From NCBI GenBank assembly GCA_029258885.1, contig JAPDJW010000002.1:192001-256000 (forward strand): a stretch of 64,000 nucleotides of DNA, given 5' to 3'. How positions within the stretch are numbered: position 1 is the first letter of the stretch; each line of letters opens with the position of its first letter. The translations under genes were made by a program, and so were the position numbers. The notes under the pieces are model-generated. The model was not told where the DNA came from, ran no database searches, and was given only the letters and a program-made list of their open reading frames with translations. This DNA is from Thermoproteota archaeon (GTDB lineage Archaea > Thermoproteota > Thermoprotei > Thermofilales > B9-G17). Shown one piece after another: positions 1,829 through 27,144 of the stretch.

Positions 1829-2923
1829 TTGGGTAATAACTTGAAGGGAGTTGAAAGGTTTCTTAAAGCATTAAATAGGGAAGAGCCCGATAGAGTCCCG
1901 ATATGGGAGCTTATTATTGATAGACCCGTGATTAAGTCCCTCTATGGGGATATAAGCTACGCTGATGTTGTTGAGATACTGGATTTAGATGGCATAACTG
2001 CTGGAGAGGACGTTAAAATGAGGGAGATTGAAAAGGGGAAATTCGTATGCGAATGGGGGATAACATGGGGCATAACCGAGTTTGGCGTAGTATATCCCCT
2101 TAAGGGTCCCATAAAAAGCAAGAAGGACTTAATCGACTATCAGCCTCCAGATCCCGATGCCGACTACAGGCTAAATACGCTTGAGGAGTATATCGATAGA
2201 TTTAAAGGCGAAAAAGCTATAGTTCTTTTAAGCCACGACGCCTTTGAATTCTCCCATTACTTGGTTGGCGGCATGGCGAATCTATTTAGGCTTTACTATA
2301 AGGATCCCGAGGCCGCACATACTCTAGCGGAGAAGATAGTCGAGTATAAATCAAGAGTCATAGAGAGAGCTATTAAGGCTGGGGCTGACGTTATATTAAG
2401 CGGAGACGACTACGCCGATAAAAACGGTCCGCTAGTATCACCCCGAATGTTCAAAATCTTCATTATGCCCTATCTTAAGAGGGTAGTTGATACGGCAAAA
2501 AGGTACGGGAAGCCGTTTATAAAACATACGGATGGAAAGATATGGAAAATCCTTGATATGATAGTTGCTACCGGTATAGATGGCCTACATCCAATAGAGC
2601 CCTGCGCAGGAATGGATATACTTAAGGTTAAGAGGATGTATGGAGATAGGATCTGCGTAATAGGCAATATAGATTGCTCCTATGTTCTTCCGTTAATGTC
2701 CCCAAATGACGTCGAGGAGGTTGTTAAGGAGACTATAGCTAAAGTGGGTCCCGGAGGAGGATATATATTATCCTCCAGCAACAGCATTCATCCAGGAGTT
2801 AAGCCAGAAAATTTTCTTGTAATGATTAAAGCTGCAAAAAGATATGGTCGTTATCCAATCAGTGAGGAGCTTATCAGGGAATATGGTAAGAGAAACTTTT
2901 ACAGTAAGATTTTCAAGTTTTAG
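1829..2923 (+). CDS. Uroporphyrinogen decarboxylase-like (URO-D/MtaA superfamily) protein
   Basis: ERFLKAL..EEPDRVP start, DD...GPLVSP.MF..F..PY, KHTDG, GNIDC and GGGYILSSSNSI motifs. TATA TTATATA at 1800-1806 fits a leaderless start. Confidence 0.85.
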   Translation: MGNNLKGVERFLKALNREEPDRVPIWELIIDRPVIKSLYGDISYADVVEILDLDGITAGEDVKMREIEKGKFVCEWGITWGITEFGVVYPLKGPIKSKKDLIDYQPPDPDADYRLNTLEEYIDRFKGEKAIVLLSHDAFEFSHYLVGGMANLFRLYYKDPEAAHTLAEKIVEYKSRVIERAIKAGADVILSGDDYADKNGPLVSPRMFKIFIMPYLKRVVDTAKRYGKPFIKHTDGKIWKILDMIVATGIDGLHPIEPCAGMDILKVKRMYGDRICVIGNIDCSYVLPLMSPNDVEEVVKETIAKVGPGGGYILSSSNSIHPGVKPENFLVMIKAAKRYGRYPISEELIREYGKRNFYSKIFKF

Positions 2924-4866
2924 AACGGCAATATCCACGTAGCTTTTGAAACCATGACAATAGCTGTTGCAAGCCCTATTAAAATACCTTCACCCGCTGC
3001 AACGCCCGCTACTATGAGTGCCTTATTTTCGTTCCACCACTCCTTTCCAACCACCTTGGGTGCTAGGTATTTGCTAATAAATGCGCCTATAAACGTAGGT
3101 ACTGCTGAAGTCGGTAGAATATAGGTACCCGTTAATAGACCTATAAGCGAGAACGGTATCCCCATTTTAGATAAAGCTTCGCCTATTATCCCTACCGAGA
3201 GCATAAGTGCGAAGGGATAGATCAGGGTTTCCGACCTGAACTTAAATATCTGCCCAGAAATCCATAGGCATGAGGACGCTGCTTGAACAGGCCATGAAAT
3301 CAATGTCTGAGGATAGACTGAGGAGGGTATTGGGGCTATGCTCCAATAGAACTGCACGTAAACGAAGCTCATTACGAAAAATACTATAGCTGTAAATATG
3401 AAGGCCTTGAAAAAGTCTGAGAGCCTGGTTTTAGTAAGATAAGCGGCCTTCATGCTTTGAGTCCAGTATGGAACAGCTGCTGCACTGACAATAGGTGCTG
3501 TCAACCACGGCTCTATTCCCTTATATCCACTTACGAGTATGGTCGCCTGCCAAACATAGGGTATCGATATAGAGTACCCTGTCTCACCTATAGTCCTTGT
3601 CCTTATGAGGGAGTCCATAAAGCTCCATCCAAGAGCTACAAGGAGGGAGAGCCATATCGGGAAGTCTAATCCCACTAAAGCATGGAACACTATAACGGAA
3701 AGTATAACTGTACCAGCATACCATAGGAGCAATATTTTAGGTGATGGGTATCCAGTGGCCTTCTCAGCCTTAGATAGCTTCGCTAAGCTCTTTATAGCCC
3801 TAATTATACTCTTATAACTTCTAGCTAAAACAATTATTGATACCGCTAACGTGAAGCCTATATGGGGAGCTATCCACACCCTTATGCTTGCCCTTTGGTA
3901 AACATAAGCTAACCCTGAGGCTGGAATCCACTCCTCAACCCATTCAGGGAACCAGTGGGCGAAAACTGTCAGCGCCAAATGATTACCTATAACCCACGTA
4001 GCTATGGATCCTATTAGCATGTAGAGGGCTGTGTCGAACGATATTAGAGTTCCCCCGAGAAATGCGAGTATATCCGTTGCTATACCAAATACCGCACCAG
4101 GCAATATATTCTCTATACCCATGTACCCAGATGTCAGATCAATCCATGGTATGGGTATCAACTCGACCCTTATACCCGTCATACCATAGGAAAGAGTAGG
4201 AACGCCATAAAGTAGTGTTGAGTATATTAGGCCGACCATAGCGCTTAGGATGAATACCCTAAGCTTTTTAGGGTCTCTTTCCGCTAGAGTGGAGCTCATT
4301 TCTGCCTGAACGCTAGCGAAGGGGAACGGCAGTTTCTCTATTTCAATGTATAGGTAACTAAAGAGAAAGGTTAATGAGATATCGTAGAATACATACATGA
4401 AGTATCCACCTACAAGTAGCAGTATGGGTATAAGCCACTCAGGTGCAAAGAATGTTCTAAGCTCATGTACTGGAGAATCGTACCTTGGAACCCACCATGT
4501 AGGTATTACTTCTGGTAGAGGTTTGCCAGTATAGGGGTCCTTAAAGGACCACGTTATAGGGGATCTGACAAAGTAAGATCTATAAACTAGTCCCTCAAAA
4601 GGGGCTGCGGTAGCGGCTATTCCAACCATGGAGTAAATTATAAACATTTCCTGCGTAGTGAGGGGGTTGCCTGTGAGAACGGCTATTTCGCTTAATAGTA
4701 TAGCTGTAACGTAGACTGCCGCGCTAGCGAGACCTCCGCCGCTTACTAAGCTTAGATATATTGATACTGGAAGGATCATTGCTGACGCGAAGAGTATAGC
4801 TAGGGCTGTTCTAGGGGTAAATCCAGGTTTAAATTCGAGCAATTCTTCAGACATGTAGAACACCAT
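2920..4866 (-). CDS. OPT-superfamily-like polytopic membrane protein (putative peptide/glycopeptide transporter), paralogue of 21458..23422
   Basis: Many hydrophobic segments; N-terminal GFTPRTALAILF; EIEKLPFP motif; C-terminal AGVAAGEG shared with 21458..23422. Confidence 0.7.
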   Translation of the reverse strand: MVFYMSEELLEFKPGFTPRTALAILFASAMILPVSIYLSLVSGGGLASAAVYVTAILLSEIAVLTGNPLTTQEMFIIYSMVGIAATAAPFEGLVYRSYFVRSPITWSFKDPYTGKPLPEVIPTWWVPRYDSPVHELRTFFAPEWLIPILLLVGGYFMYVFYDISLTFLFSYLYIEIEKLPFPFASVQAEMSSTLAERDPKKLRVFILSAMVGLIYSTLLYGVPTLSYGMTGIRVELIPIPWIDLTSGYMGIENILPGAVFGIATDILAFLGGTLISFDTALYMLIGSIATWVIGNHLALTVFAHWFPEWVEEWIPASGLAYVYQRASIRVWIAPHIGFTLAVSIIVLARSYKSIIRAIKSLAKLSKAEKATGYPSPKILLLWYAGTVILSVIVFHALVGLDFPIWLSLLVALGWSFMDSLIRTRTIGETGYSISIPYVWQATILVSGYKGIEPWLTAPIVSAAAVPYWTQSMKAAYLTKTRLSDFFKAFIFTAIVFFVMSFVYVQFYWSIAPIPSSVYPQTLISWPVQAASSCLWISGQIFKFRSETLIYPFALMLSVGIIGEALSKMGIPFSLIGLLTGTYILPTSAVPTFIGAFISKYLAPKVVGKEWWNENKALIVAGVAAGEGILIGLATAIVMVSKATWILPF

Positions 4867-5036
4867 TGCTGGTGGTCAATAACTTAGAGGATAATTAGCT
4901 TATTAATGTTATCATCACCATGGTACAGACAGCGCTAGTTATTCAATACATGCTATTCCAGCTAGTCCATAGGCCTACGGCAAATGATAAACAATATAAA
5001 ACGTAACTGGTATATCATGGTAGTATTTGAGGTGGT

Positions 5037-8000
5037 ATGTGCATGAACAAAAAACTATTGATCGTAATAATACCGCTATTATTAACCGTTCAACTAGTTG
5101 CCTCAAAACCGGAGGGGGAATCTATTTATAAAGAGCTATATGATAAAATAAACCTAGACAATATAAAGTATCATGTAAAGTATCTCTCATCCCTTGATAC
5201 CCTTTTCGTAGGCTATGAGGGCTATTATAAGGCGGCCGACTATATAGAGAGTAAGTTCAGGGAGTACGGCCTAAAAGTCTGGAGGCACGAGTTTAAAGTC
5301 GTCGTCCCCATCGACGAGGGATCGTATATAATATATAGGAAGACTGGAGAGAAGTTAAGGGCTTATGCCATGCTTCCAAACCTAGTGCAAACATGTTCAG
5401 GAAGGATTTCCGGTGAACTAGTATATGTTAAGGGGTATGATTTACAGGAACTTTCTGGGGTAAGCTTAGAGGACAAGATAGTTCTTATGGAGTACAACAC
5501 CTATAGAAACTGGCTGTATTTAGCAAATCTAGGAGCTAAAGCTGTAATTTTCATAGAACCCTCTGAAACGGATCTGCGGCAGTCGATAGCTAAGGTACTT
5601 TCAGTTCCATTGAATTTCACGAGAGTATACGTTACTGGAGATGTAGCTAGTAGATTAAAGGAGATAGCGAGAGAGGGTGGGGTGATAGATCTAGTAGTAA
5701 ACATGAAGTTTAAGGAGGTAGTAGGATACAATATAATTGGAGAGTTGAAGGGTGAGCTTGAAAACGATGTAATTCTAATGGTGTCGCATTACGATTCGTG
5801 GTCGGCAGTTCCAGGTAGATCCCTAGCGCTGGATGATATAGTTTCTGTTTCATCCCTACTTGAAATTGCCAGAATAATGTCTAAGTATAAACATAAGAGA
5901 ACTATATGGTTTGTAGCGTTCGGAGGACACTGGCAGGCACTAGCCGGTCCACGGAGTTTCGTGGAGGACTACTGCTTCAATGAAACCGTTCAAAGAGGAG
6001 AGCTTAAGCTATGGATGGCTATAGGCATAGATTTCTCCCTTAGAGGAAATAAGACGGCGTTAGTTGACGCCGGCTATTTCTATAGCTACGATGGAGGTAA
6101 TAGAGCTAATCTCCTAGCAAGATTTAGAGGCACATTAAGACCCCTAAGGACAGGCGAGGTATCTCCGATTGAAAGGTATCTAGCTAGGGTTATAGAGGAG
6201 ATATATGAAGGGAGAATAAAGCTTCCACAGCTCCTAGATAGTGGAATAGTTGAGGAAAATATAGGTTGGTGGGCGTCAATTCAAGAACCCTATATCCTAG
6301 ATACCGAGCCATTTATGGCTTCCGGAGGCATAGGATTCACCTTTTACACGGGCGATGTATTCAGGCCTGAGAGAGGCACAACGGTAATTCCTAAGAGAAG
6401 CTTTAACTATGAAAACCTTAAGCCGCAGATTATTGTTGCCCTGGCAACTCTCTATGGATTTGCAAACGAGGAGGATTGGGCCCTAAACTGGGACGAGGTT
6501 AAGGCCAGCAGAGCTTTCGTAGTTTCTGGAGGAGCTACAGCACTATATACCGCTAAGGGATTCAATTATATAGAGGGTAAGGTTGTTGAATACAGCTTAA
6601 TTCAAGGCAAGTATATTCCCGTACCCAATGCAATAGTAGTAATTCATAGGGGAGATCCCATAAACTTCCCATATAACGTGATATATACCTTCGCCGATAA
6701 GAACGGAACCTTCAGAATATACGGCTCTACGCCTAACACTGGAATAATGTCCCCCTACGGGGGATACGGTTCATATCACGTTAGCGCATATGTGCTGGAC
6801 GATAAAGGCAGGGTAATATACGCCCCCGACTATGGGATATATGGCCATAGAAGATTTCCGAGTACTGTTTTAGCTAGGCATGAAATTAACAGGATACAGG
6901 CGAGAGTATTCAGAGTTAAGGGTAGAATATATTTATATGGCCTTGTAGACCCCTATACCGTAAGCGTTAGGTCGGCTACAAGGTACGTAAATCCGTTTTC
7001 ATACTGGGCATCCCCGCCTACGTTTTACATAACGTTATTTAAATCTGAGACGCTAAGCGAGCCTATGAGCTTCTATGTCAGTGTTCAGCCTCCCGTTGCC
7101 GTCATATTTACGCCAAGGGAACTAAATAAGGTAACATTACTCATTAAATACGGTGCCCTAGGGAGAATAGTTGGACTCTTACAGGAGATACCGATAAGCG
7201 CGGAGGTACACGTGCATAGGACGATATATAACATTGCGATAAACTTATACAATATCTCAAGTGAAAGGTACCTTAAGCTAAAGAATTCCTTTATTGAAAT
7301 ATTCTTGGTCGAAGAAACCCTTTCCCACACACGCAAGCTAATAGATGAGGCTAAAGCTAACCTTATAAAGAGGGACTACAACGGATTCTTCAGTAGCGCC
7401 ATTTTCTCATGGCTATGGAGCATCGATAGCTATAGAAACGTAATGGCTGTTGTATTTGATGTCGCAAATACGAGCGCAATATTCTTCGTTCTATTGCTAC
7501 CCTTCACATTTTTCTTTGAACGGTTGGTGTTCCACGCAGAGGGCTATAAGAGGTTCGCTGTAATAGTATCTACGGCCATACTTTTGACCGTGTTCTTTTC
7601 GGTAATTCACCCATCCACAAAGCTTGCTTCGAACGCGTATGTAGGATTCCTGGGGGTAACTCTAGGTGGAATATTCATAGCGATAATAGTTCTATTCACC
7701 GAGGAGTTAAGGTCTTTCCTTAAAGAGATTAGGAAGAAGCTTAGGGGCGAACACTTTATAGAGAAGGGTCTAGTACCAATGACTACGATAGCCTTCTCGG
7801 TAGCTCTTGAAAACATGAGGGTTCGTAAGCTAAGAACCGTCCTAGTCCTATTTACGATAATAACAACAGTATTCAGTTTAATAGCGCTAGCATCATTTAG
7901 CTACGCGATAAGCGTATACGATAAATATCCGATAAAGTATGAGGGAGAACCGCCTTATGAAGGACTATTAGTTAAACTGGGAATAGGAGCGCCGTGGGAT

Positions 8001-9506
8001 TTAATGGGACAGGAGACGTTATCCAGCATACAGGCGATGGTTGGATTAAGGGCAAATATTTCGCCTAGAGTATGGCTTTATCCGACATCTAGAGTATTCT
8101 CGGCAGAGGGAGTTCTAATGAAAGTTAAAAGTACTCATGGGGAGACCTACATAAGAGCATTACTAGGTCTATCTCCAACAGAGCCTATGAATCCACTAGA
8201 TTTAGGCGTTATATATGAAGGTAAGGCGTTAAGGTGGTTTATAGAGGAAGACGAGTACGTATGCTATATTCCATCCGAAATTGCCTCCCAGCTAAACGTC
8301 GATGTAGGCGATACGATAAATGTTGCTGGAATAGACCTCAGGATCCTAGGAATATATGACGAAAAAATGTACGACTACTACCTCGATATTTTCGGCGATA
8401 AATTTACGCCACTAAATCCACAGAGAATAATTTCACTATCTCTAGAAACTCTGCCAGAGGAGGAGTTTGTTACCCTACCTTTCGGCGATGTAATTATAGT
8501 TCCATACGAGCTAGCACTAGAGCTTGGAGGAAACATAGCTAGCATTGCCATAACATCAAATGATGCAGAGTACATAGATAGCCTAGCATGGGAGCTTGCC
8601 GCTCATACAGCCTTTGACGTCATTTTGAGTAAAAACGGCGAAGTATTCATGTTACATAGAAGAGTAATATCGATGATAAGAGGACTTGAATACATAGCAT
8701 TCCCGTTGATCATAGGCTCACTCAATATATTTATAACAATACTTGGATCCATAAAGGAGAGGGAGAATGAAATAAAAATATACAGCTCCCTAGGCCTCTC
8801 CCCAACGGGAGTATTCGCTCTGTTCCTAGTCGAAACAATGACATACGCTTTTATAGCAATAGTTCCAGGATACATTTTAGGCATACTCTTCAACGTGTAC
8901 CTGGTGGCAAATGACATACTTCCACCAGGTTTCTCCGCAAACTACACCTCCTCCGCCGAAGTCTACACAGTTAGCATAACCTTGCTAGCTACGATCGCAG
9001 CATCCCTCTATCCTATAATGAGGGTATCAAGAACAGTCACGCCATCTTTTGAAAGAAAATGGAAGATACCGACCAAGCCCGTAGGAGATACATGGGAGAT
9101 ACCACTTCCATTTTCAGTAACAAATGAAAAATCTGTTAAGGGCATCATATATTACCTTCAAGAATTCTTTAAGGGGCTCATGATAGAAACCGATCAGCCC
9201 TACATAGTCAGGGCATTAAACTATGACCTATCCAAGAACGAAATAGATATGGTGGTAGCATTAAAGCCCATAGAATCTAATGTTACCCAGGATGTAATAA
9301 TTAGAGCTTTAAGAGTGGAAGAAAATAAGTTCTCTTTCACTATAATTGTAAAGAGAAGAACTGGAGCTAAACTTGTATGGAAATCTTCCAACTACAGGTT
9401 CATAGATGCTGTGAGGAAACAGCTGCTTACATGGCGCTTCATAGGTCCAGAGAAGAGGAGACGATACATAATGCTGGCATTAAAATCCTCTACCTCCACG
9501 AGCTAA
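5037..9506 (+). CDS. Giant membrane protein: signal peptide + PA domain + M28-peptidase-like fold + TM bundle + MacB/FtsX permease + C-terminal soluble domain
   Basis: Signal peptide; PA-like GELVYV...KIVL...GAKAVIFIEP; M28-like SHYDS and DD; FtsX motif SIKERENEIKIYSSLG; paralogue of 17059..21474. Confidence 0.8.
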   Translation: MCMNKKLLIVIIPLLLTVQLVASKPEGESIYKELYDKINLDNIKYHVKYLSSLDTLFVGYEGYYKAADYIESKFREYGLKVWRHEFKVVVPIDEGSYIIYRKTGEKLRAYAMLPNLVQTCSGRISGELVYVKGYDLQELSGVSLEDKIVLMEYNTYRNWLYLANLGAKAVIFIEPSETDLRQSIAKVLSVPLNFTRVYVTGDVASRLKEIAREGGVIDLVVNMKFKEVVGYNIIGELKGELENDVILMVSHYDSWSAVPGRSLALDDIVSVSSLLEIARIMSKYKHKRTIWFVAFGGHWQALAGPRSFVEDYCFNETVQRGELKLWMAIGIDFSLRGNKTALVDAGYFYSYDGGNRANLLARFRGTLRPLRTGEVSPIERYLARVIEEIYEGRIKLPQLLDSGIVEENIGWWASIQEPYILDTEPFMASGGIGFTFYTGDVFRPERGTTVIPKRSFNYENLKPQIIVALATLYGFANEEDWALNWDEVKASRAFVVSGGATALYTAKGFNYIEGKVVEYSLIQGKYIPVPNAIVVIHRGDPINFPYNVIYTFADKNGTFRIYGSTPNTGIMSPYGGYGSYHVSAYVLDDKGRVIYAPDYGIYGHRRFPSTVLARHEINRIQARVFRVKGRIYLYGLVDPYTVSVRSATRYVNPFSYWASPPTFYITLFKSETLSEPMSFYVSVQPPVAVIFTPRELNKVTLLIKYGALGRIVGLLQEIPISAEVHVHRTIYNIAINLYNISSERYLKLKNSFIEIFLVEETLSHTRKLIDEAKANLIKRDYNGFFSSAIFSWLWSIDSYRNVMAVVFDVANTSAIFFVLLLPFTFFFERLVFHAEGYKRFAVIVSTAILLTVFFSVIHPSTKLASNAYVGFLGVTLGGIFIAIIVLFTEELRSFLKEIRKKLRGEHFIEKGLVPMTTIAFSVALENMRVRKLRTVLVLFTIITTVFSLIALASFSYAISVYDKYPIKYEGEPPYEGLLVKLGIGAPWDLMGQETLSSIQAMVGLRANISPRVWLYPTSRVFSAEGVLMKVKSTHGETYIRALLGLSPTEPMNPLDLGVIYEGKALRWFIEEDEYVCYIPSEIASQLNVDVGDTINVAGIDLRILGIYDEKMYDYYLDIFGDKFTPLNPQRIISLSLETLPEEEFVTLPFGDVIIVPYELALELGGNIASIAITSNDAEYIDSLAWELAAHTAFDVILSKNGEVFMLHRRVISMIRGLEYIAFPLIIGSLNIFITILGSIKERENEIKIYSSLGLSPTGVFALFLVETMTYAFIAIVPGYILGILFNVYLVANDILPPGFSANYTSSAEVYTVSITLLATIAASLYPIMRVSRTVTPSFERKWKIPTKPVGDTWEIPLPFSVTNEKSVKGIIYYLQEFFKGLMIETDQPYIVRALNYDLSKNEIDMVVALKPIESNVTQDVIIRALRVEENKFSFTIIVKRRTGAKLVWKSSNYRFIDAVRKQLLTWRFIGPEKRRRYIMLALKSSTSTS

Positions 9507-9642
9507 CAACAATATATATTATAATATAATGATTTATTTGCAAATGAAATTTTTATTTCAAAACAAAAAAGATTTACATATATAAGCTCAACGTTAAAGC
9601 TTAAATAGACTTACGATTAATTTTCCCTCAGGGTGTTCTTTT

Positions 9643-11676
9643 ATGAGTTCTAGTACAGAGGTTCGGGAGGAAGTTATTGAGAAGGGATTAACGCCGAGAG
9701 CTATAATTCTGTCTTTCGCTATACTATTAGCGACTTTTGCTGAAGAGCTTATACTTTACATAAGCCCCGACTTACGCTGGTTTAATGCATGGTTCCCTCT
9801 TCCGCCATTCCTCTTAATATTCATAGACTATGCTTTGGGCAAGATTAATCCACGTTTTAAACTCAGGAGAGGCGAGTGGGTAGTAGTAATAGCTGCTGCC
9901 TCAGCAATAACATTCTCCACCTATCTACAGCATGGACCATCATACGTATTCATGATGCCGATATTAGCTCAAGGACCATTTATGCCTCTCTACTTTAAGA
10001 TGCATCCATCATTCAAGAAGTATGGGTTAGGCGATCTATATCCTGTATTCATGTGCCCGACAAGCCCTGAGGCCATAGATGCTTTCACCTATGGAGGCCC
10101 GTTCAATATAGGTGATTGGCTACCCTTCATAATCTTCTGGACACTGCAGTGGATATTCCTGGTAATGATATATGTCTTCTTCGGTTTCATGCTTAGAAAA
10201 CCGTTTGTAGAGATAGAGAGGATCCCATTCCCATACGTTATTGCTACAACTGAAGTAATCAAAATGTATACCACCGTAGAGGACAATAAGCCATCTATCT
10301 TCAATTTAAAGAACCCGAGGACTAAGATGTTCTATATAGGCTTTGCATTAGGTCTCTTCTTCACATTCCCGGGCTTTATTCAGAAGGTATTCTTCCCAGA
10401 GTTCTGGGGAGGAGTACCGTACAGCTACTCATTCGACCTCTCAACGTACGTCAGGTCCTTCCTGCCGGGCTCATACACCAGAGGGCTAATAGTACTCCAG
10501 GACATAGCCTTATCCTATCTAATAAACATAGATATTCTGGCAAGCGTAATAATATTCTACGTAATATTCTCAATAATATATCCAGTGCTCGGAGTAACTA
10601 TGGGATTTCTGCCCTACAAGGTAGGATACGAGAGAAGCCAATGGTACTATGGCAGAAGGTACGGTCCATTCCACTGGATAGATTTCATGTATTGGCTACC
10701 ATTTGCAATAGGATTGTGGGTCCTTCTAAATAACTGGAGCCACATAAAGGGTATATTAACAACATTCTATACTGGCAAGGATGTAGTTGAAAGCGGAGTA
10801 TCCTACAAGTTCATATCATGGGGAGCATTAATATCCTTCATAGGCTTCTGGCTTCTATGGATAATTGCTGGAGCACCAATAATAGCTTCACTAATACTAA
10901 TAGCCTTCATGATAATCTGCTTCTTCGGATACACCTACGCTAGGGCGGAGGCAGGCTTTGTTCCATGGAACCTGTACTCAAGGCTTAATCTACCCTACGA
11001 CATTGGAGCAGCTACTCTAGCATTCAACTGGACACAACCGGATCCAAGGGCTTTCACATATTCAACGATGTTCATGGCTTCATGGAACGATGGCCACAGA
11101 ATGACTGGCTTTGCTATGTGGAACCACATGGGTCTCTACAAGATGGCCGACGAGCTAAAGACCAGAGCCAAGGATATAGTTATAATCTTACTAATAATGG
11201 GTGTTGCTACAGCCATATTGGTACATACTGTCGGTATATGGGCGTACACGGCATACGGAGGATGGACTGGACCAATGGGTAAAGATACTATAGGCTATGC
11301 AGCATGGTATGCATGGTTCCCATTAATTGACGCTAAAACTGGAAAGAAGCCGGCGTTTTGGAACCCGGAGTGGGGATTCCCGTATAACTGGACATTATTC
11401 ATTACGGGTATACTATTCACGTTAGGCTGCTTCTTCGCTAGAGCAAGGTGGCCATGGTTCATACTGAATCCAATAGGTATCTTCGGAGCATACGGCTACT
11501 GGTTCTGGCCAAATGCCCTAATAGCGTTAATCCTCAAGTACTTAACACTAAAGATAGGTGGAACAGAGCTCTACTACAAGATAGGAATACCGCTAGCAGT
11601 AGGATTCATAGTGGGTGTAGGGTTCCTCACGACGTTCACGTACCTAATATTCTTCGTACAGGCCCTAACAAAATAA
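9643..11676 (+). CDS. DUF6785/DUF6784-type polytopic membrane protein (OPT-related), paralogue of 12930..14966
   Basis: GLTPRAII start; LRKPFVEIERIPFPY; WPWFILNPIG near the C-terminus; strongly hydrophobic. Confidence 0.65.
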   Translation: MSSSTEVREEVIEKGLTPRAIILSFAILLATFAEELILYISPDLRWFNAWFPLPPFLLIFIDYALGKINPRFKLRRGEWVVVIAAASAITFSTYLQHGPSYVFMMPILAQGPFMPLYFKMHPSFKKYGLGDLYPVFMCPTSPEAIDAFTYGGPFNIGDWLPFIIFWTLQWIFLVMIYVFFGFMLRKPFVEIERIPFPYVIATTEVIKMYTTVEDNKPSIFNLKNPRTKMFYIGFALGLFFTFPGFIQKVFFPEFWGGVPYSYSFDLSTYVRSFLPGSYTRGLIVLQDIALSYLINIDILASVIIFYVIFSIIYPVLGVTMGFLPYKVGYERSQWYYGRRYGPFHWIDFMYWLPFAIGLWVLLNNWSHIKGILTTFYTGKDVVESGVSYKFISWGALISFIGFWLLWIIAGAPIIASLILIAFMIICFFGYTYARAEAGFVPWNLYSRLNLPYDIGAATLAFNWTQPDPRAFTYSTMFMASWNDGHRMTGFAMWNHMGLYKMADELKTRAKDIVIILLIMGVATAILVHTVGIWAYTAYGGWTGPMGKDTIGYAAWYAWFPLIDAKTGKKPAFWNPEWGFPYNWTLFITGILFTLGCFFARARWPWFILNPIGIFGAYGYWFWPNALIALILKYLTLKIGGTELYYKIGIPLAVGFIVGVGFLTTFTYLIFFVQALTK

Positions 11677-11688
11677 ACAATATTTTTT

Positions 11689-12882: not shown

Positions 12883-12929
12883 TAAGAGGGAAAACTCAAT
12901 TCATTAAAAAGATGCGAAATAATAAAAAA

Positions 12930-14966: not shown

Positions 14967-15022
14967 CTAATTTACTTCATATATCTAATAGATAAAAATA
15001 TAAGAAAATATATTAAGGTTGT

Positions 15023-16843
15023 TTATTTCTTGGTTTCCTCCTCTTTTCTAGGCTTAGCCTTCCTTATCTTCAGGAATACGAAAACTATTATCAGTATTAT
15101 GATTATTACTGCTGCAGCTATTAGGTTCCCGTACTTAGTCATAAATGGTATCTCAATCTTAAACTTTACAACTGCTTCTGCCTTGTTTCCAGCTTTATCG
15201 TAGGCTACTATCTTAAGCTCATGCTCACCCTCGGGAACCTTTGCAAATATAGACGTTGTTGATGTAGTAGTCTCATGTAGCTGGCCATCAAGATATACCT
15301 CAAACTTATCTATGCCGGCCCCTTCGTCAGAAGCTGTCCATGTGGCTGTAAACTCTGTCTGAGGTATAGTTTCCCCAGACTTAGGTGAGGTAATGGTTAT
15401 TGTTGGTGGAGTAACGTCAACATTAAATATCCTGCTTGCCGACGTAGTCTCGCCCCTAACGTTATAAACAACTATGGTTACATTATGAGAACCTGTAGTG
15501 AGGCCTGTTAGTGTATATGTTGTTTGATTAACTGGAATGTTTGCCGCTATACGCTCTCCATCCAGATATATCTCTATCTTCTCCAATCCTACTCCCTGAA
15601 CAAGCCACTCAACCTCAACATCTCCAGTACTCCATCCAGCCTCTAAAGGCTTCAAAATCGTAACTATTGCTGGAGGTAAGGTGCCTATAGCGTATACGAA
15701 TCCATCATTAGACCCCACGAATAATATTCCATCTCCAAAGCTTACATCCTGGACATCAGCCCCAAATACCGTCAAATTCCAAAGCATTTCTCCAGTACTT
15801 GCATCAAGACAGTAAAGTATTGCATGGTCTGTACCAAAGTACAGTCTTCCCTCAGCATAAACCACATGCTGATAGAATGGCCCGCTCCCCTGGAACTCCC
15901 ATACGACCTCTCCAGTATCCTTATTAACGGCTATTATCTTAGCATCAGGCTTATACTCCTTAACAATAACATAGCCTTCAGGTATTACCAGAGGCTGATT
16001 ATATATACCTCTTCCAAACTTGTACTGCCATATAACCTCTCCCGTTTCAGCGTTAAGCGCATATAACGTGCTACCTCCACCAGTTATATCACCGACAACA
16101 TATACTACTCCATCGTGGAACGTTACTCCAAACGGCGCGCCGCCAGTATTAAACTCCCAGAGCTTATTGCCAGTATCTGGGTCAAGGCAGTAAACCTTGC
16201 CATCATAGCTTGCCCAGTAGAGCTTACCATTACCTAATGCGGCTGGACCTCTAACTTGTCCGCCAGTCTCAAACTGCCAAATAAGTTCTCCAGTAGTTGC
16301 ATTAACGCAGTACATGAAGTAATCCTTAGATCCAAAGTATAGTTTGCCATTATATACTAGCGGCGGTGTCATTATAGCTCCAGCAGTCTCAAACTGCCAT
16401 ATCAGCTCTCCGGTATAGAAGTCAAGGGCATACATTATGTTATCGTAGCTACCAATAAACACGTAAGTTCTTCCATCAGTCCCCTCCCATACACATGGCG
16501 TACTATAGATGGGTCCACCTGTTGGGAATGACCATATCCATTTACCAGTAAATTCCTCTAGGCAGTGAACTAAGCCATTTCTCTCACCATATATAACTCT
16601 ATCCTTATATACCAGTATTTGACCCCAGTGTTTAGCGCCATCTTCATACTTCCACAAGATGTTTGGCTCCTCAGGACCGTCTGTGGCAACGCCATTGCGT
16701 TCGGGACAGCCCATATACATTGTCCACCACGGTCTCTCCTGGGGCTGTGAATAAACTGCTGGCATATAAAACGGCGCTATACTGAACGAAAGAAGCAATA
16801 CTAACAACATTAAGATACTTTTTTTCATAAATTCTCCCCCCAC
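15023..16843 (-). CDS. Surface protein: PQQ-type (BamB-like) beta-propeller + two Ig/FN3-like domains + C-terminal TM anchor
   Basis: Repeated W.FETGG...LY.GS.D...YC.D..TG...W units; DVTPPTITITSP Ig-like junction; signal peptide; C-terminal hydrophobic helix with basic tail. Confidence 0.85.
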   Translation of the reverse strand: MGGEFMKKSILMLLVLLLSFSIAPFYMPAVYSQPQERPWWTMYMGCPERNGVATDGPEEPNILWKYEDGAKHWGQILVYKDRVIYGERNGLVHCLEEFTGKWIWSFPTGGPIYSTPCVWEGTDGRTYVFIGSYDNIMYALDFYTGELIWQFETAGAIMTPPLVYNGKLYFGSKDYFMYCVNATTGELIWQFETGGQVRGPAALGNGKLYWASYDGKVYCLDPDTGNKLWEFNTGGAPFGVTFHDGVVYVVGDITGGGSTLYALNAETGEVIWQYKFGRGIYNQPLVIPEGYVIVKEYKPDAKIIAVNKDTGEVVWEFQGSGPFYQHVVYAEGRLYFGTDHAILYCLDASTGEMLWNLTVFGADVQDVSFGDGILFVGSNDGFVYAIGTLPPAIVTILKPLEAGWSTGDVEVEWLVQGVGLEKIEIYLDGERIAANIPVNQTTYTLTGLTTGSHNVTIVVYNVRGETTSASRIFNVDVTPPTITITSPKSGETIPQTEFTATWTASDEGAGIDKFEVYLDGQLHETTTSTTSIFAKVPEGEHELKIVAYDKAGNKAEAVVKFKIEIPFMTKYGNLIAAAVIIIILIIVFVFLKIRKAKPRKEEETKK

Positions 16844-17058
16844 CTGGATTTATCTTTTAGCTTTAGAACTTATAAGTTTTAACATTAAATTTATATATTA
16901 GATGGCTAACTTTTTATCAAATTTTCTATCGAAGGAAATTATCAAAATATTATACTACATATTTCCCAAAACAATTTATGGTAAAAATATAAGTCTTAGG
17001 CGGGATAAGCGTTATTTAGGTAAAGATTTAATCTAGTATAAGCCGTGGAGGGACGGTT

Positions 17059-20000
17059 ATGAGGAGGAGGACTATAATATTGTTATTACTATTCTTCAGT
17101 CAAACCCTGGCATGGGCACATGGTTCCTCCTATGGGGCTTTTCCCATTGATAATATTAACTTCGACCACATAGCGGCTATGGCGGAGAAGATTTCAAGCT
17201 TTGAGTCCCGCGTTACGGGCTATCCGGGATATTATAGGACATTAACATATATAGAGAGACTAGCCGCAAATTTTGCGAATAAGCGTGGTTTAGATATTAT
17301 TAAACAGAATTTCACGGTTTTGGTGCCACTTGAGATAGAATCGTATCTAGTAGTTGGGAATACTAAATACAGGGCGTACGCTATGTGGCCTAATCTCGTG
17401 CATACTTGCAAGACCGTAAAGCCTATTTCGGGAAAGTTTGTCTACGCTAAAGGTGGTGGAATTGAAGAGATAAATGGTCTTCCATTAAATGGAAGTATAG
17501 CATTCCTTGATTTTAACTCGGGCTATAACTGGCTTAGGATAGCTAGTTTAGGGGCGAAAGCCATAGTGTTCGTGGAGCCGAACTCCACTAATACATACGA
17601 GTCTTTAACTAAGTTCATAGAGGTGCCTATAAACATTCCGAGACTATATGTAAGGAAAGATACATTCGAGGAAATACTGAGAATTAATCCCGAGGAGGTA
17701 AGCGTTTTTCTTAATATGGAGTTTAGGGAGGTTAATGCTACGAACATAGTAGTCGAAGTACCAGGTTCAAATGAGAATTTAAGGAATGAGATAATAGTGG
17801 TAGCAACGTATCTGGATTCTTTCTCACCAGTACCCATGCTTTCCCCCGGCTTTAGTGAGGCCATATCTACGGCATACCTACTAAACCTGCTTGAAATACT
17901 TGCCGAGAATCCCACCGAAAGAACGGTCTGGATAGTATTCCTTTCGGGACACTGGCAGGCATTAGCTGGAGCCAGATACTTCGTTGAAAAGTTTTTCCTA
18001 AATGAGGGTAGGAGGATTGTAGCCTTTATAGGACTGGATCTAAGCAACGATAAGGGCAAACTGGGACTAATGTACAAAGGCTATTTCTATGAGTTCTATG
18101 CGCCCAACGTTGAGAGGTGGATTTTCTGGCTTAAAAATAAGATCTTTGGAGATGGAGGCTATTTAGATAAGCTATCTGAGCTAAGCGACTTTGAGTACAG
18201 GGAGCTAATAGTTGATGCATTAGTTAAAAACTATGGATGGTGGGGTCAAATGTATGGACCGTACATCCTTGACAGCGAGCCCTTTGTAGTAGCTCACGGG
18301 CTAGGTTTTACGATAGCGGATCAGATAGAGTTTCCAACGCTCAAATTAACTCCAATAGACGAAGTTAGAAACTTAGATAGGGAGAATTTGCTACGGAAGT
18401 TGGAAATTGCGACAGCTATTATCTATGGGCTTGCTAACGAGCCGGACTATATTAGCTGGAGCGATATATCCCCCGAGAGGATTAAATGGAGTGCTGGAGG
18501 AGCTGACGTGGCAGGCTTTATTACAATGGAGGGGGAGGTTCTAGTATATAATGTAAGTAGCGGATGGTATACAGCGCTAGGGAACGCCATAGTTATAGTG
18601 TCTCGTTACGGTCTCGATTATCTAGAGTTCCCATTCACTAGAATATATGTTAAAAGCAATGAAAATGGTAAATTTAGGGTACTAGGACTTGGACATGGAT
18701 CGGCCGTAGGTTGGTACTACGTAGAAGCCTACGTCCTAGATAATACCACTGGAGACATAATTTATGCGCCGGATTACGGTGTTTACGGCTATAGACAGCT
18801 ATCCTTCGCATACTCTCCTGATAGCCATCCAGTTAAAGCATCAACCGTCGTCTTTAGGTGCGCTACCATAAACATATTTGATTTAGTTGATCCCCTCGGC
18901 CTTAGAAGAACGGTATATTATGATAGAAGGTTCATGAAGACATACACGAGATTCACGGGGGGCACAATTTACCACTTATGGCTAAACTTAGGCTCCTCGC
19001 TTTCAATACTCGATAAAAGCACTTTAAGTGAATACATTAGGTGGGGAGCATGCGTACATAGGGGAATTGGCGCGGCTTCAATATTTGTTCCATTAAACTC
19101 TACGACTGTTATACTATTTAAGATAGGGCAGCCAGCTGCCACGGTAGGTATTCTGGCAAATGCATCACGTGAGTACCCTAATGGGGTTGGCTTTAAGTGC
19201 CAGGCTAAATCGATTAGCGTTAAATTCTCCTCCTTTATATTTGCTAGAGATCTATATCTGGTGGCTTTAAAAAGATATTCTATACTTAAAGAGAACGGCA
19301 TAAGAGATCCATTAGCTGAAAAATACCTGGATCTAGCGGGGCTTTACCTTGCCGATATTAAACGTGAAATTAAAGAAAACAATTACGGCTATGCCTATAC
19401 TCTAAGCATTATAGCGTGGAATACTTCATTAAAAGCTTACAGAAGGATTATGGGAATGATAAGTGATACGATGACTGTAAACTTAATGTATTTCCTCCTA
19501 ACTGTTCTATTCATATTCTTCCTAGATTTAATATTATTTAAGAAAAGAACGATTAAGGAGATTGCCTTTATAGCCGGAGCAACTGCAGGATTAATACTGA
19601 TTTACTACCTAATACATCCGGCTCCCAAGATAAGTCAAAGCTTCATAATATCTCCGCTCTCAGTAACTCTCGAGATACTATTCTTGTTTGTCGCTGTACT
19701 ATTTCTGAGAAACTTCTCCCTCATAATTAAGGAGGCTGCTAAGAGGGTATCTGGGACACATAGGATAGAGGAGGATTTCTTTGCTTTAGCCTCTTTATCA
19801 TTTAAGTACTCGATAGAGAACGTTATGAGGCGTAAAATTAGGGCTATGCTGATAATGATTAACCTTACAACAATAATGTTTGCAATGGTTGCACTTACCT
19901 CAGCTTATCCATCTCAAATGACGGTGGAAGGTTACGTTGGAGGAAGCGCAATTTATGAGGGTGTAATGATAAGCTATGGGTTTGAAAACACACCGGCTAA

Positions 20001-21474
20001 CGTAATAGACTACGATCTCTCCAAGGCTATCCTACCGCTATTACGCGGGCTAGACTACAAGATAAGCTACAGGATCTGGCTCTACCCACAGTCATACAGG
20101 GGCTCTTCAGTATTTATCTTAGCTACATATAATGGCAGGACTTACAAGTTCAAGTCAATATTAGGCTTATCTCCCGACGAAATAGAGCTTAGATCCGGAA
20201 TAAAGGATATGATGATAGGCAGATGGTTTGAGCACTACGATGAGTACGTATGCATTATCTCAAGCAGCGCAGCCGAGAAACTTGGCATTAACATATACGA
20301 TAAGTTGAGTCTGGGAGGGCTCAATTTAACAGTAATAGGTATTCTAGATTCCTCAGCTATAGAGTATCTCAAGGATCTTGATGGAAGCTACATAGTCCCC
20401 GTGGATCCGGACGACGTCGTTAGCTTAAAGGTTGGCATAGTATCGGAGGAAGTTAGGAAGCCAGTATCGCTAGATGAAATAATCATAGTCCCCGATAGGT
20501 TGGCACTGAAGCTGGGAGGCTATGTCTCAAGCATAGCAGTTAAGGTAGACTATGAGCATGCACTTAACATAGCAAGGAATCTATCCCTAGTATTGGAGGG
20601 TCCAGCCATCTATCTGTCTGATGGATCGAGGGTAGTAACGGTAAGCGTTATTTCAGGTCTAGAAATATACGGATGGAACTACCTGCTAATTCCGCTCATA
20701 ATAGGTTCATTCACGGTAGTGATATCCATTATGGGCAATATTAGAGAGAGAAAATCTGAAATAGACGTATACTCGGCCATAGGCCTGCCTCCAAGCGGAA
20801 TAGTAGTGATGTTTATGACGGAAGCCTTAATATACGGGGTTATAGCTGCGGTCATAGGCTATATAGCTGGTGTCGCTACAAACAGAATCCTAGTAGGACG
20901 TGGCTTGCTTCCTCCAAGCTTTATGATAAACGTATCGTCCTCCTTCATGATTATAGCATTTGTAATTATAATGTTATCAACAATTCTTTCAGCGCTCTTC
21001 CCCTCTCTATCGGCATCAAAGATGGTTACTCCTTCGCTTAGAAGAAAATGGAGAGCTACCAAGCCTGTAGGGATAAGGTGGGAGGTCCCCTTACCATTCA
21101 CAGCTAGCAGTATAGCTGAGGCTAGGGGTATGCTTAGGTATCTAGCGGAATTCTTAGGATACCATAAGATAGAGACCCCCGATCCATTTTTCGTGGATGA
21201 ACTGAAGGTTGATCTCGATAACCTAAGGATAGATGCTAAAATGACACTTAAGCCCCTTGAGTCGGGAGTAAAGCAGAGCTTCGTTCTTTCCGCTAGAAGG
21301 TTTGGCGGTAGGTATACATTCGCCGTCTCGATAACTAGGCTGAGCGGTTCTAAGGAAATATGGAGAACCGTCAACTATAAGGTTATAGATGCCGTAAGGA
21401 AGCAGTTTCTACTATGGAGAAGCCTACCCGAGGAGGAGGCATTAAAGTACATTAGAGGTGAGAAGCATGTATGA
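17059..21474 (+). CDS. Second giant PA/M28-like-FtsX membrane protein
   Basis: Same architecture as 5037..9506. Shared GHWQALAG, YAPDYG.YG, RVWLYP/RIWLYP, ERKSEIDVYSAIG and TKPVG..WE.PLPF motifs. Confidence 0.8.
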   Translation: MRRRTIILLLLFFSQTLAWAHGSSYGAFPIDNINFDHIAAMAEKISSFESRVTGYPGYYRTLTYIERLAANFANKRGLDIIKQNFTVLVPLEIESYLVVGNTKYRAYAMWPNLVHTCKTVKPISGKFVYAKGGGIEEINGLPLNGSIAFLDFNSGYNWLRIASLGAKAIVFVEPNSTNTYESLTKFIEVPINIPRLYVRKDTFEEILRINPEEVSVFLNMEFREVNATNIVVEVPGSNENLRNEIIVVATYLDSFSPVPMLSPGFSEAISTAYLLNLLEILAENPTERTVWIVFLSGHWQALAGARYFVEKFFLNEGRRIVAFIGLDLSNDKGKLGLMYKGYFYEFYAPNVERWIFWLKNKIFGDGGYLDKLSELSDFEYRELIVDALVKNYGWWGQMYGPYILDSEPFVVAHGLGFTIADQIEFPTLKLTPIDEVRNLDRENLLRKLEIATAIIYGLANEPDYISWSDISPERIKWSAGGADVAGFITMEGEVLVYNVSSGWYTALGNAIVIVSRYGLDYLEFPFTRIYVKSNENGKFRVLGLGHGSAVGWYYVEAYVLDNTTGDIIYAPDYGVYGYRQLSFAYSPDSHPVKASTVVFRCATINIFDLVDPLGLRRTVYYDRRFMKTYTRFTGGTIYHLWLNLGSSLSILDKSTLSEYIRWGACVHRGIGAASIFVPLNSTTVILFKIGQPAATVGILANASREYPNGVGFKCQAKSISVKFSSFIFARDLYLVALKRYSILKENGIRDPLAEKYLDLAGLYLADIKREIKENNYGYAYTLSIIAWNTSLKAYRRIMGMISDTMTVNLMYFLLTVLFIFFLDLILFKKRTIKEIAFIAGATAGLILIYYLIHPAPKISQSFIISPLSVTLEILFLFVAVLFLRNFSLIIKEAAKRVSGTHRIEEDFFALASLSFKYSIENVMRRKIRAMLIMINLTTIMFAMVALTSAYPSQMTVEGYVGGSAIYEGVMISYGFENTPANVIDYDLSKAILPLLRGLDYKISYRIWLYPQSYRGSSVFILATYNGRTYKFKSILGLSPDEIELRSGIKDMMIGRWFEHYDEYVCIISSSAAEKLGINIYDKLSLGGLNLTVIGILDSSAIEYLKDLDGSYIVPVDPDDVVSLKVGIVSEEVRKPVSLDEIIIVPDRLALKLGGYVSSIAVKVDYEHALNIARNLSLVLEGPAIYLSDGSRVVTVSVISGLEIYGWNYLLIPLIIGSFTVVISIMGNIRERKSEIDVYSAIGLPPSGIVVMFMTEALIYGVIAAVIGYIAGVATNRILVGRGLLPPSFMINVSSSFMIIAFVIIMLSTILSALFPSLSASKMVTPSLRRKWRATKPVGIRWEVPLPFTASSIAEARGMLRYLAEFLGYHKIETPDPFFVDELKVDLDNLRIDAKMTLKPLESGVKQSFVLSARRFGGRYTFAVSITRLSGSKEIWRTVNYKVIDAVRKQFLLWRSLPEEEALKYIRGEKHV

Positions 21475-23422
21475 GAGACGCTTTAAATCAGGATTTACTA
21501 GAAGGTCTATACTAGCGCTCATATTTACCTCATTCACGATACTTCCTGTACAAATACTGCTTAGACTTACATCAGGAGAATCTATCGCCGCTGCAGCAGC
21601 ATACATAACTATAATTCTCTTTACTGAAATATCAGTATTCCTAGGAAATCCGCTAAGCAAGCAGGAGGTTTTCATAATATACTCGCTCGCAGCTCTTGCT
21701 GGAACAGCTGCGCCGTTTCTAGACTTCGTATACTACGCGTACTTTAAGACTTCAGAAATAGCGTGGTCGCTTAAGAATCCCTATACTGGAAGGCCCATAC
21801 CGCTTGAAATACCCTCCTTCTACGCCCCTCCAATAGGCTCTTCAGCCTATAGGTTTAGGTCGTTTATACATAGTGACTGGATACTGCCGATATTTGCATT
21901 CACGTTTCAATTCGGACTGCTTCTGGTACTAATGGAGTTTTCCCTAACATTTATGGGAGCGGCGTTATTCATAGATGTTGAAGAACTACCATTCCCCATA
22001 GCAAATGTTCAAGCACAGCTCATAAGCACACTAACTGAAAGAGATAGAGAAAGAATGAAGATATTTACGATAATGGCCGTAGTCTCTTCAATATACGCCT
22101 TCGTGCTTTACGGCATTCCAATATTATCCATGGGGATGTTCGGTACAAGCATTCAGATAATTCCTCTACCATGGCTGGATATGACCACGGGGCTAATAGG
22201 CATAGAGAAAATACTGCCTGGAGCCATGTTTGGAATTTCAACAGACCCCATAGCATGGGGAGTGGGGCTACTCCTATCCTCAGACACTTTAATATACATG
22301 ATTATTGGAAGCATAGCTGTATGGGTTATAGGAAATTACCTAGCTTTAAACGTATTCAGTAGCGAATTTCCCGAGTGGGCAGCTGAGTGGAAGCCTGGCA
22401 TGTCGCTTTCACTAATATGGCAGAGAAGCTACCTCAGGGTATGGTCCTTCATACACCTTGGCATATTTTTCGCTGTTTCAGCTATAATAGTTGCTTCAAA
22501 GTTTAAGAGTCTAATTAAGGCTTTTAAAATATTAATAAATCCTCCGAGAAGAGTGAAGGAGGCAGGATACATAGACATGCGAATACTAGTTTTAACGTAT
22601 GTATCAGCAAGCTTAGCGTCAGTATTATTCTTCCATTACCTAGTTAAAGACTATCCGCTACAGTACATGTGGGCAACAGTAGCATTATCCATGGGTGCGA
22701 GCTTCATATTTGCGCTAGTAAATACGGCTATGCTTGGAGAGACTGGAGCTACCGTCGGAACAATAGGGGGAATAGCTCCTCAGCACCTATTGTGGTATGG
22801 TACGCTATATACAACAGGCTATAAAGGAGTTGCTGCCTTCTTCTTTAACCCTGTTATAGGCGGTATACTATCCCCGAGTTGGGTGCAGGCAATTAAAGTT
22901 GCCCACCTCACCGAAACCAAGCCAATAGATTTCTTCAAGGCATACGCGATAGCTTTCATACTATACCACTTGTTCAGCTTCGTATACGTGTCGGCTTACT
23001 GGGCAATAGCTCCTATACCTTCCTCAGTGTACCCAGCAGCTATGGTTTTCTGGCCAATGGCAGTGCTAAACAAGGGAATGTGGGTAACGAGGAGGATAGT
23101 AGCTAAGCCTACTCTCACGGTATACAGCTTCATAACTATGCTATTACTCGGAGCAGCGGGAACTATTTTATCTAAATTTGGATTGCCGTTCAGCATAATA
23201 GGATTAACCGTAGGCATTACCACCCCGCCACCGTTTCCGGTAGCAGCCTTCCTGGGAGGCGTTATAGGAAGAGTTATAATTAGAAATCTGTATAGCGATG
23301 AATGGTTTAAGAAATATAGGGCGGTTATCGTGGCTGGAATAGCGGCTGGAGAAGGCATAGTCATCGGAATATTCTCAGCGATAGCTCTGATGTCTAAGTC
23401 GGCCTGGCTTCTCCCCTATTAA
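21458..23422 (+). CDS. OPT-superfamily-like polytopic membrane protein
   Basis: GFTRRSILAL; DVEELPFP; AGIAAGEG; overlaps the upstream FtsX gene by 17 nt. Confidence 0.7.
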   Translation: MRSMYERRFKSGFTRRSILALIFTSFTILPVQILLRLTSGESIAAAAAYITIILFTEISVFLGNPLSKQEVFIIYSLAALAGTAAPFLDFVYYAYFKTSEIAWSLKNPYTGRPIPLEIPSFYAPPIGSSAYRFRSFIHSDWILPIFAFTFQFGLLLVLMEFSLTFMGAALFIDVEELPFPIANVQAQLISTLTERDRERMKIFTIMAVVSSIYAFVLYGIPILSMGMFGTSIQIIPLPWLDMTTGLIGIEKILPGAMFGISTDPIAWGVGLLLSSDTLIYMIIGSIAVWVIGNYLALNVFSSEFPEWAAEWKPGMSLSLIWQRSYLRVWSFIHLGIFFAVSAIIVASKFKSLIKAFKILINPPRRVKEAGYIDMRILVLTYVSASLASVLFFHYLVKDYPLQYMWATVALSMGASFIFALVNTAMLGETGATVGTIGGIAPQHLLWYGTLYTTGYKGVAAFFFNPVIGGILSPSWVQAIKVAHLTETKPIDFFKAYAIAFILYHLFSFVYVSAYWAIAPIPSSVYPAAMVFWPMAVLNKGMWVTRRIVAKPTLTVYSFITMLLLGAAGTILSKFGLPFSIIGLTVGITTPPPFPVAAFLGGVIGRVIIRNLYSDEWFKKYRAVIVAGIAAGEGIVIGIFSAIALMSKSAWLLPY

Positions 23423-27096: not shown

Positions 27097-27144
27097 CTAT
27101 CCCCCAAAAGTATATAACGATTGATTCGGTATAATGGCTACGTG
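27085..27144. promoter_or_regulatory. Compact divergent promoter with a central TATATA between nagZ and the kinase gene
   Basis: AAAAG-TATATAAC at 27106-27118. In-frame ATG of nagZ (27087, -) and in-frame GTG of the kinase (27142, +) both lie about 30 nt from the 5' edge of the box on their own strand. Confidence 0.5.

Follow-up and report, generated by a model that had tools for sequence, protein, structure and literature searches.

A Giant FtsX Protein and an OPT-Fold Pair in a Thermofilales Archaeon as Candidate Parts of an Uptake Machine With a Shared Type VII ABC Motor

Gene Organization of the Locus

The window analyzed here is a stretch of 64,000 nucleotides from contig JAPDJW010000002.1 (assembly GCA_029258885.1) of a Thermoproteota archaeon of the order Thermofilales, whose 2.1 Mb genome is 99.9% complete and has a predicted proteome of 2091 open reading frames (ORFs). 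Within the window lie two sets of genes, each encoding a giant FtsX protein (F) and two membrane proteins (A and B). The best overall explanation, held with somewhat better than even confidence, is that F, A and B make up the substrate-specific half of an ATP-driven uptake machine, with a type VII ATP-binding cassette (ABC) motor that is shared. The positions, order and orientation of the eight ORFs of the locus (A1- F1+ B1+ GHL10- B2- propeller- F2+ A2+) were confirmed as follows:

2920..4866, minus strand: A1, OPT/YSL-fold permease of 648 amino acid residues, 44-45% identical to A2, with a 74% identical ortholog in genome G008
5037..9506, plus strand: F1, 1489 residues (Pfam, alignment, motifs)
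9643..11676, plus strand: B1, DUF6785+DUF6784 membrane protein of 677 residues, a full-length homolog of A (Pfam, profile alignment)
11689..12882, minus strand: surface-anchored GHL10 glycosidase (Pfam E 1.5e-30; hydrophobic N- and C-termini)
12930..14966, minus strand: B2, DUF6785+DUF6784 membrane protein of 678 residues (Pfam, profile alignment)
15023..16843, minus strand: surface-anchored PQQ-type beta-propeller with immunoglobulin domains (Pfam, hydrophobic termini)
17059..21474, plus strand: F2, with the architecture of F1, 1471 residues, overlapping A2 by 17 bases (Pfam, model, Foldseek, motifs)
21458..23422, plus strand: A2, OPT/YSL-fold permease of 654 residues (Pfam OPT, model, Foldseek)

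An earlier note, made from the letters of this DNA alone, had given these genes with their coordinates, arrangement and motifs, and all of them were confirmed by the ORF coordinates, a motif scan and a proteome-wide count of the PFP pattern. Domain searches of the window proteins also bore out its statement that no ABC ATPase, phosphotransferase system (PTS) or sugar ABC transporter lies inside the cluster. GHL10 is the family of E. coli DigH, and the PQQ-type propeller may possibly be a binding protein. The same locus was present, gene for gene, in two further assembly records, which belong to this species or to one very close to it. The intergenic regions of the locus showed no convincing palindrome in common.

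The F Protein

F1 consists of a signal peptide, a degenerate PA/M28 domain, beta-sandwiches with a helical stalk, three extra transmembrane helices, a MacB/FtsX permease and a cytoplasmic tail. Pfam matched M28, MacB_PCD (at or near the cut-off) and FtsX (above the cut-off) in F1 and F2, and the transmembrane profiles of both showed an FtsX-type permease of four helices with a large extracytoplasmic domain between the first and the second. The model of the outer part of F2 (predicted local distance difference test, pLDDT, 88.3) displayed a PA/M28 fold with beta-rich domains and a helical stalk after it, and Foldseek matched the head of F to an aminopeptidase (E 6e-24) and to the transferrin receptor (1e-19). 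The 'GEE' motif of M28 is gone in 21 of 21 aligned homologs, where GH[WYNQ] or a similar sequence is found instead, and the histidine of the zinc-ligand HxD motif is a tyrosine in F2 and varies among the aligned homologs. Given the loss of the catalytic and zinc-binding glutamates, an active M28 peptidase was ruled out. The head resembles the PA/M28 aminopeptidases and the transferrin receptor in fold; it has lost these glutamates, as in a receptor, and differs in being fused to a permease. The head of F is probably a receptor rather than an enzyme.

A coupling motif, ERxxEI...LG, was detected at the sequence level between the second and third FtsX transmembrane helices (TM2 and TM3) of F1, F2, a short FtsX protein (see below) and one classical FtsX. 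In type VII ABC systems, the site between TM2 and TM3 binds the ATPase (PMC5985334). At L164:1-3524 the permease bears an enzymatic head instead: a protein of 1813 residues joins a GH2 glycosidase (GH, glycoside hydrolase) to MacB_PCD and FtsX. This gene adjoins a close relative of the second module of the window.

A and B as an OPT-Fold Pair

The PFP motif lies at position 175 of A1, 173 of A2, 190 of B1 and 184 of B2, and the G[FL]T[PR]R motif is present in A1, A2 and B1. In the whole proteome the PFP pattern occurred seven times, exclusively in A- or B-family proteins, and is therefore not a matter of chance. A2 matched Pfam OPT with 53 bits (cut-off 25.8; E 2e-14); A1, B1 and B2 gave no OPT match, B1 and B2 were assigned DUF6785 plus DUF6784, and A1 had no Pfam match at all. 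When the A2 model (pLDDT 92.7) was compared with the PDB by Foldseek, it matched barley YS1 only (7WSR/7WST; probability 1.0, TM-score 0.64-0.70), and as modeled A2 has the YS1 core plus scaffold fold. The A and B profiles aligned over 580 columns at 99.9%; B is therefore, by profile homology, a second OPT-fold subunit. The resemblance to OPT/YSL transporters proposed in the earlier note was thus supported by the A2 model and by the A/B profiles.

YS1 is a homodimeric, proton-coupled elevator that works as an importer (PMC9691689), and an A/B pair would mirror its homodimer. The likeness has its limits: A2 and YS1 share 16% identity, two dissimilar subunits are found here, and a receptor and an ABC motor go with the pair. 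That the motor is so constantly linked to them speaks against A and B working alone as proton-coupled symporters. When the F2 membrane helices were modeled in complex with A2, the score was 0.02, which gave evidence neither way. At L040:10001-11986, a lone A-family gene was observed beside pectate-lyase-like and GH2 genes, with no F or B within 10 kb.

Eight Modules in One Genome

Genome-wide profile searches recovered eight A, eight B and eight full-length F genes at seven loci, which supports a fixed 1:1:1 gene set. The earlier note had described the window sets as duplicated, a misleading term for two of eight paralogous sets. A recent tandem duplication was ruled out, as A1 is more similar to the C4 copy (50% identity) than to A2, and well-supported branches of the tree part A1 from A2 and place the two window copies in different clades. 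Across the eight sets, the divergence of F tracked that of A (rho 0.65, permutation p 0.01); B did not track A (rho 0.06), so that similarity does not reveal which B is cognate. A homologs were found in 25 of 41 relatives, with at most eight copies per genome.

A glycosidase- or phosphorylase-family gene stands beside the module at six of the seven loci, namely GH130; glucoamylase-like/DUF3131 with GH94; melibiase-like with galactokinase; DUF6259/GHL6; GH57; and, in the window, GHL10/GH18/GH3. At the seventh locus the neighbor is a C25-like peptidase. Six more large FtsX proteins (957-1351 residues) without an M28 head and without an adjoining ATPase were also observed (C2:159914-163969, C2:99812-102685, C3:29551-32688, C1:266426-269827, C14:9067-11991 and C4:94913-97876); two of them adjoin F/A/B modules, and these proteins may possibly be extra clients of the shared motor. 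At C1:604430-605887, a classical LolD-type ATPase gene broken by a frameshift or stop lies beside a fragmented FtsX gene.

A Probable Trans-Encoded Type VII ABC Motor

The candidate motor components are encoded on contig C2:

C2 342683-343423: orphan LolD/MacB-type ATPase with no permease nearby
C2 376287-377009: LolD/MacB-type ATPase, a 73% identical paralog of C2:342683, beside the short FtsX
C2 377013-377675: short FtsX of 220 residues, consisting of the transmembrane part only
C2 253424-253864: PqqD-like protein

In bacteria, A is found in operons with B, F, a PqqD-like protein, a short FtsX and one or two ATPases. At the 42 bacterial loci with full flanks, F was present in 42, the short FtsX in 40, the ATPase in 39 and B in 38. 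The operon ATPases share 55-65% identity with the two C2 ATPases and 41-49% with the other LolD paralogs, and the bacterial short FtsX and PqqD-like proteins each had one clear best match, both on C2. Walker A, signature, Walker B and H-loop are intact in both C2 ATPases, and the orphan is 78-90% conserved in relatives. Of 41 related genomes, 23 had both the A gene and the ATPase subfamily and 14 had neither, with four discordant cases; for the short FtsX and the A gene the corresponding counts were 21, 14 and six. These genomes are kin and not independent, and the p-values are overstated. An ATPase of the dedicated subfamily adjoined none of the eight modules of the genome and none of the 40 modules read in archaeal relatives. 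An ABC ATPase that does lie near the C4 module was rejected as a partner, because it is on the opposite strand and is paired with its own small permease.

The C2 motor very probably belongs to the A/B/F system, and we conclude from the genomic pattern that one trans-encoded motor apparently serves all modules in these archaea. In G002 and G029 the short FtsX and the ATPase subfamily were found and an A gene was not; there the motor may serve other FtsX clients. The operons of Desulfobacterota (L071-L122) are often followed, on the other strand, by genes for an ABC protein of about 840 residues, a cyclic-nucleotide-binding-like protein and an anti-sigma-antagonist-like protein, as judged by eye.

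The system shares several features with type VII ABC transporters such as MacB, LolCDE, FtsEX and HrtBA (PMC5985334): the FtsX permease domain, with its TM2-TM3 coupling motif, is present in both F and the short FtsX, F has a MacB-like periplasmic core, and the ATPases are of the LolD/MacB type with intact motifs. By genomic assignment, it appears to possess the cognate LolD/MacB-type ATPase of this class. In contrast to the known members, F adds a pseudo-peptidase head of 800 residues, three transmembrane helices and a cytoplasmic tail, its short FtsX partner has no outer domain, two OPT-fold proteins are always encoded alongside, and a single motor appears to serve many permeases in these archaea. 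The earlier note had presented the sets as an ATPase-less secondary transporter and had named a dedicated partner ATPase as evidence against it; at the genomic level, the 39 of 42 operons, the C2 matches and the co-occurrence point to just such a partner. Group II energy-coupling factor (ECF) transporters consist of an ATPase pair and one membrane subunit that are encoded apart and shared by many substrate-specific components, with dedicated operons in other genomes. The likeness lies in the logic of a shared motor only; the folds differ on both sides, and no homology is claimed.

Peptidoglycan Genes Around the Modules

The two modules are the sole transporters within a murein cluster, the further genes of which are:

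585..1790, minus strand: AnmK anhydro-N-acetylmuramic acid kinase, cytoplasmic (Pfam; no hydrophobic terminus)
1829..2923, plus strand: URO-D-family protein, convergent with A1 (Pfam)
23486..24346, plus strand: surface-anchored C39-like cysteine peptidase (domain match; hydrophobic termini)
24330..25562, minus strand: LysA-type diaminopimelate decarboxylase (domain match)
25552..27096, minus strand: NagZ-type GH3 without signal peptide (domain match, motifs)
27121..28092, plus strand: MurK-like BadF-family kinase (domain match)
28096..29076, plus strand: MurQ etherase (domain match, motifs)
29051..30217, plus strand: NamZ exo-muramidase without signal peptide (domain match)
31932..33044, minus strand: AmiE-like beta-lactamase-fold amidase without signal peptide (domain match, motifs)

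B2 is co-oriented with the GHL10 gene (47 bases apart) and A2 with the C39 gene (63 bases apart). Just upstream of the window (L004:13202-15773), a membrane-anchored Amidase_2 with intact zinc motifs is encoded divergently from a GH18 gene. Together with this amidase and GH18, the locus has the genes of a complete pathway for peptidoglycan sugars, and catalytic motifs were present in the enzymes checked for them. Hydrophobic termini were found at both ends of the amidase, GHL10 and C39 and at the N-terminus of GH18; NagZ, NamZ, AmiE, AnmK, MurK, MurQ and LysA have none.

The clustering of MurQ, AmiE, NagZ and NamZ homologs, with their catalytic motifs, beside a transporter recalls the murQ-murR-murP-amiE-nagZ-namZ operon of B. 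subtilis, where NagZ, NamZ and AmiE are secreted and monosaccharides are taken up by the PTS (PMC8054146). It differs from that operon and from the E. coli AmpG route in its archaeal host, in exo-hydrolases that are apparently cytoplasmic, and in kinases that replace the PTS. The module is unrelated to both AmpG (major facilitator superfamily) and MurP (PTS EIIC), and, in agreement with the earlier note, the 99.9% complete genome yielded no member of the PTS EIIC or AmpG families. Since the exo-hydrolases lack signal peptides, oligomers must enter the cell, and an importer of wall fragments is needed. That at least one window copy imports such cell-wall fragments or muropeptides is, in our judgment, an evenly balanced proposition.

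Several other genes of the window were noted in passing. Between namZ and amiE lies a tRNA synthetase with a tRNA_bind_4 domain (30332-31942), which we take to be the methanogen-type SerRS. An anaerobic ribonucleotide reductase, NrdD, with an intein bearing a LAGLIDADG-like domain is encoded at 33528-36905, and a 740-residue protein that by eye resembles a GH31 glycosidase at 44364-46586, distant from any module.

Distribution and Neighbors of the Modules in Relatives

Matches to the system were found in the host order, among Bathyarchaeia- and Heimdallarchaeota-labelled sequences, and in the bacterial groups Lentisphaerae, Phycisphaerae and Desulfobacterota. Carriers available in culture include Halodesulfovibrio aestuarii DSM 17919, Solidesulfovibrio aerotolerans DSM 16695 and Desulfogranum marinum DSM 2058. 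The murQ gene occurred in 15 of 41 relatives and in 38 of 401 genomes of the phylum. Beside the 40 archaeal modules, surface-tethered proteins made up 9 of 98 neighbors (1 of 103 in controls). Genes of the URO-D family recur beside modules, as at 1829-2923 of the window and in L166, where three surround one module. In L187, L190 and L197, RuBisCO large-chain and trimethylamine methyltransferase family genes flank the module.

Proposed Mechanism and Alternatives

From the folds, the gene sets, the bacterial operon linkage, the co-occurrence and the hydrophobic enzyme termini, we infer contacts, direction and cargo as follows. The degenerate PA/M28 head of F would capture an oligomer outside the cell, where the surface enzymes (amidase, GHL10, GH18 and C39) would cut the cargo. 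F and the short FtsX would form a LolC/LolE-like heterodimer that binds two ATPases, and ATP-driven mechanotransmission would hand the ligand to, or gate, the A/B pair, which would carry it across the membrane by its YS1 elevator fold. One motor would be common to the eight modules, by analogy with the group II ECF transporters. Degradation would be finished in the cytoplasm by NagZ, NamZ, AmiE, AnmK/MurK, MurQ and LysA. The machine is probably an importer. The complete picture, in which a type VII motor physically drives, or gates, a heterodimeric elevator of the OPT fold that is supplied by a pseudo-peptidase receptor, is swapped among modules in archaeal loci that resemble polysaccharide-utilization loci, and, through the window copies, brings peptidoglycan fragments into a wall-less archaeon as food, is tentative and, taken as a whole, doubtful.

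A number of observations weigh against ATP-driven uptake of wall fragments by the window copies. All of the evidence is genomic, and we know of no type VII ABC importer; MacB, moreover, moves no substrate across its own membrane (PMC5985334). The motor occurs without an A gene in two relatives and the A gene without the motor in two. Elsewhere in the genome, three MalK-type and one Opp-type ABC systems could import the fragments. When 24 other murein clusters were read, several of them on short contigs, a full module was found in one (G013, between murQ and an Amidase_2 gene, in a different clade from the window copies), a module about 12 kb off in one (G024, sister of the G013 module) and a lone B in two (G030 and G081). 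Murein genes are absent from the neighborhoods of the set 1 ortholog in G008 (74/57/51% identity) and of the closest relatives of A2. Neighbors of the 40 archaeal modules matched a limited seed set of carbohydrate-active enzymes (CAZymes) in 6 of 98 cases (1 of 103 in controls; p 0.052); GH51, GH38 and apiosidase-like neighbors were spotted by eye and left out of this count, controls not having been treated alike. No CAZyme stood out by eye among the recurrent neighbors of the Desulfobacterota modules.

Part of this evidence bears on the cargo rather than on the machine. The same ATP-driven system might import other glycans, peptides or chelates through the window copies, or its position among murein genes might be incidental, with an Opp- or MalK-type ABC system importing the muropeptides; we regard this as unlikely, if by no means negligible. 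It fits the G008 ortholog of set 1, which adjoins, as read by best match, a nucleoside phosphorylase and an ECF-like transporter, the relatives of A2, which adjoin a GH2-FtsX fusion or URO-D genes, and the Opp-type ABC importer that stands beside murein genes in place of a module in G010 and G111; with several modules per genome, some chance adjacency to murQ is also expected. Against it, the window modules are interleaved with anmK, GHL10, C39, the upstream amidase and GH18, the short-spaced B2/GHL10 and A2/C39 pairs are co-oriented, and the module was present in 14 of 15 genomes with murQ and 11 of 26 without it, although these genomes are not independent. The muropeptide importer proposed in the earlier note survives in part: an importer is needed and the PTS EIIC and AmpG families were not found, but a full module lies in one of the 24 other murein clusters, the CAZyme excess is only moderate, and most homologous modules have other neighbors. 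Muropeptide specificity is thus a reasonable local hypothesis and not a property of the family.

The remaining alternatives concern the machine itself. That F, A and B alone form an ATP-independent, ion-driven heteromeric muropeptide importer is highly improbable and contradicted for the most part by the operon and profile data: the ATPase lies within the operon at 39 of 42 bacterial loci, its closest matches are present and co-occur in archaea, F retains the coupling motif, and the cargo link is not conserved. In its favor are the lack of a dedicated-subfamily ATPase beside the eight modules of the genome and the 40 archaeal modules of relatives, the proton-coupled elevator mechanism of YS1 (PMC9691689) and the need of the cell for a fragment importer. 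An envelope or signaling device, whose motor works outside the membrane by placing or freeing hydrolases at the cell surface, by extracting a lipid-linked substrate or by sensing, with A and B as scaffold, exporter or flippase, would accord with the efflux, sensing, division and lipoprotein trafficking in which reviewed type VII systems act (PMC5985334), with conservation in sulfate reducers without evident catabolic neighbors, and with the enrichment of tethered surface proteins beside modules. This too we consider improbable. Eight diverged copies, most with a different group of enzymes for sugar degradation, among them phosphorylases of the cytoplasm (GH94, GH130), and with TrmB regulators, are better explained by uptake, and YS1, the solved member of the OPT family, is an importer (PMC9691689).

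Significance

The system is a real composite in which an OPT-fold pair is combined with a type VII ABC motor; it is neither an ATPase-less carrier nor a local duplication. No description of DUF6785, of the A/B/F gene set or of MurQ/AnmK catabolism in archaea was found in the literature searched, the coverage of which was incomplete. If ATP-driven uptake by this composite is correct, this would be, to our knowledge, the first case of a type VII ABC system in uptake, and one of the rare instances of an ABC motor coupled to an elevator-type carrier. Archaeal peptidoglycan hydrolases have been described with the question of killing versus feeding left open and without mention of MurQ or NamZ (PMC12352652); the locus bears on this question. 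It also gives the family a concrete cargo hypothesis with a purchasable test ligand, and the operon is carried by cultured sulfate reducers, so that genetics is possible.

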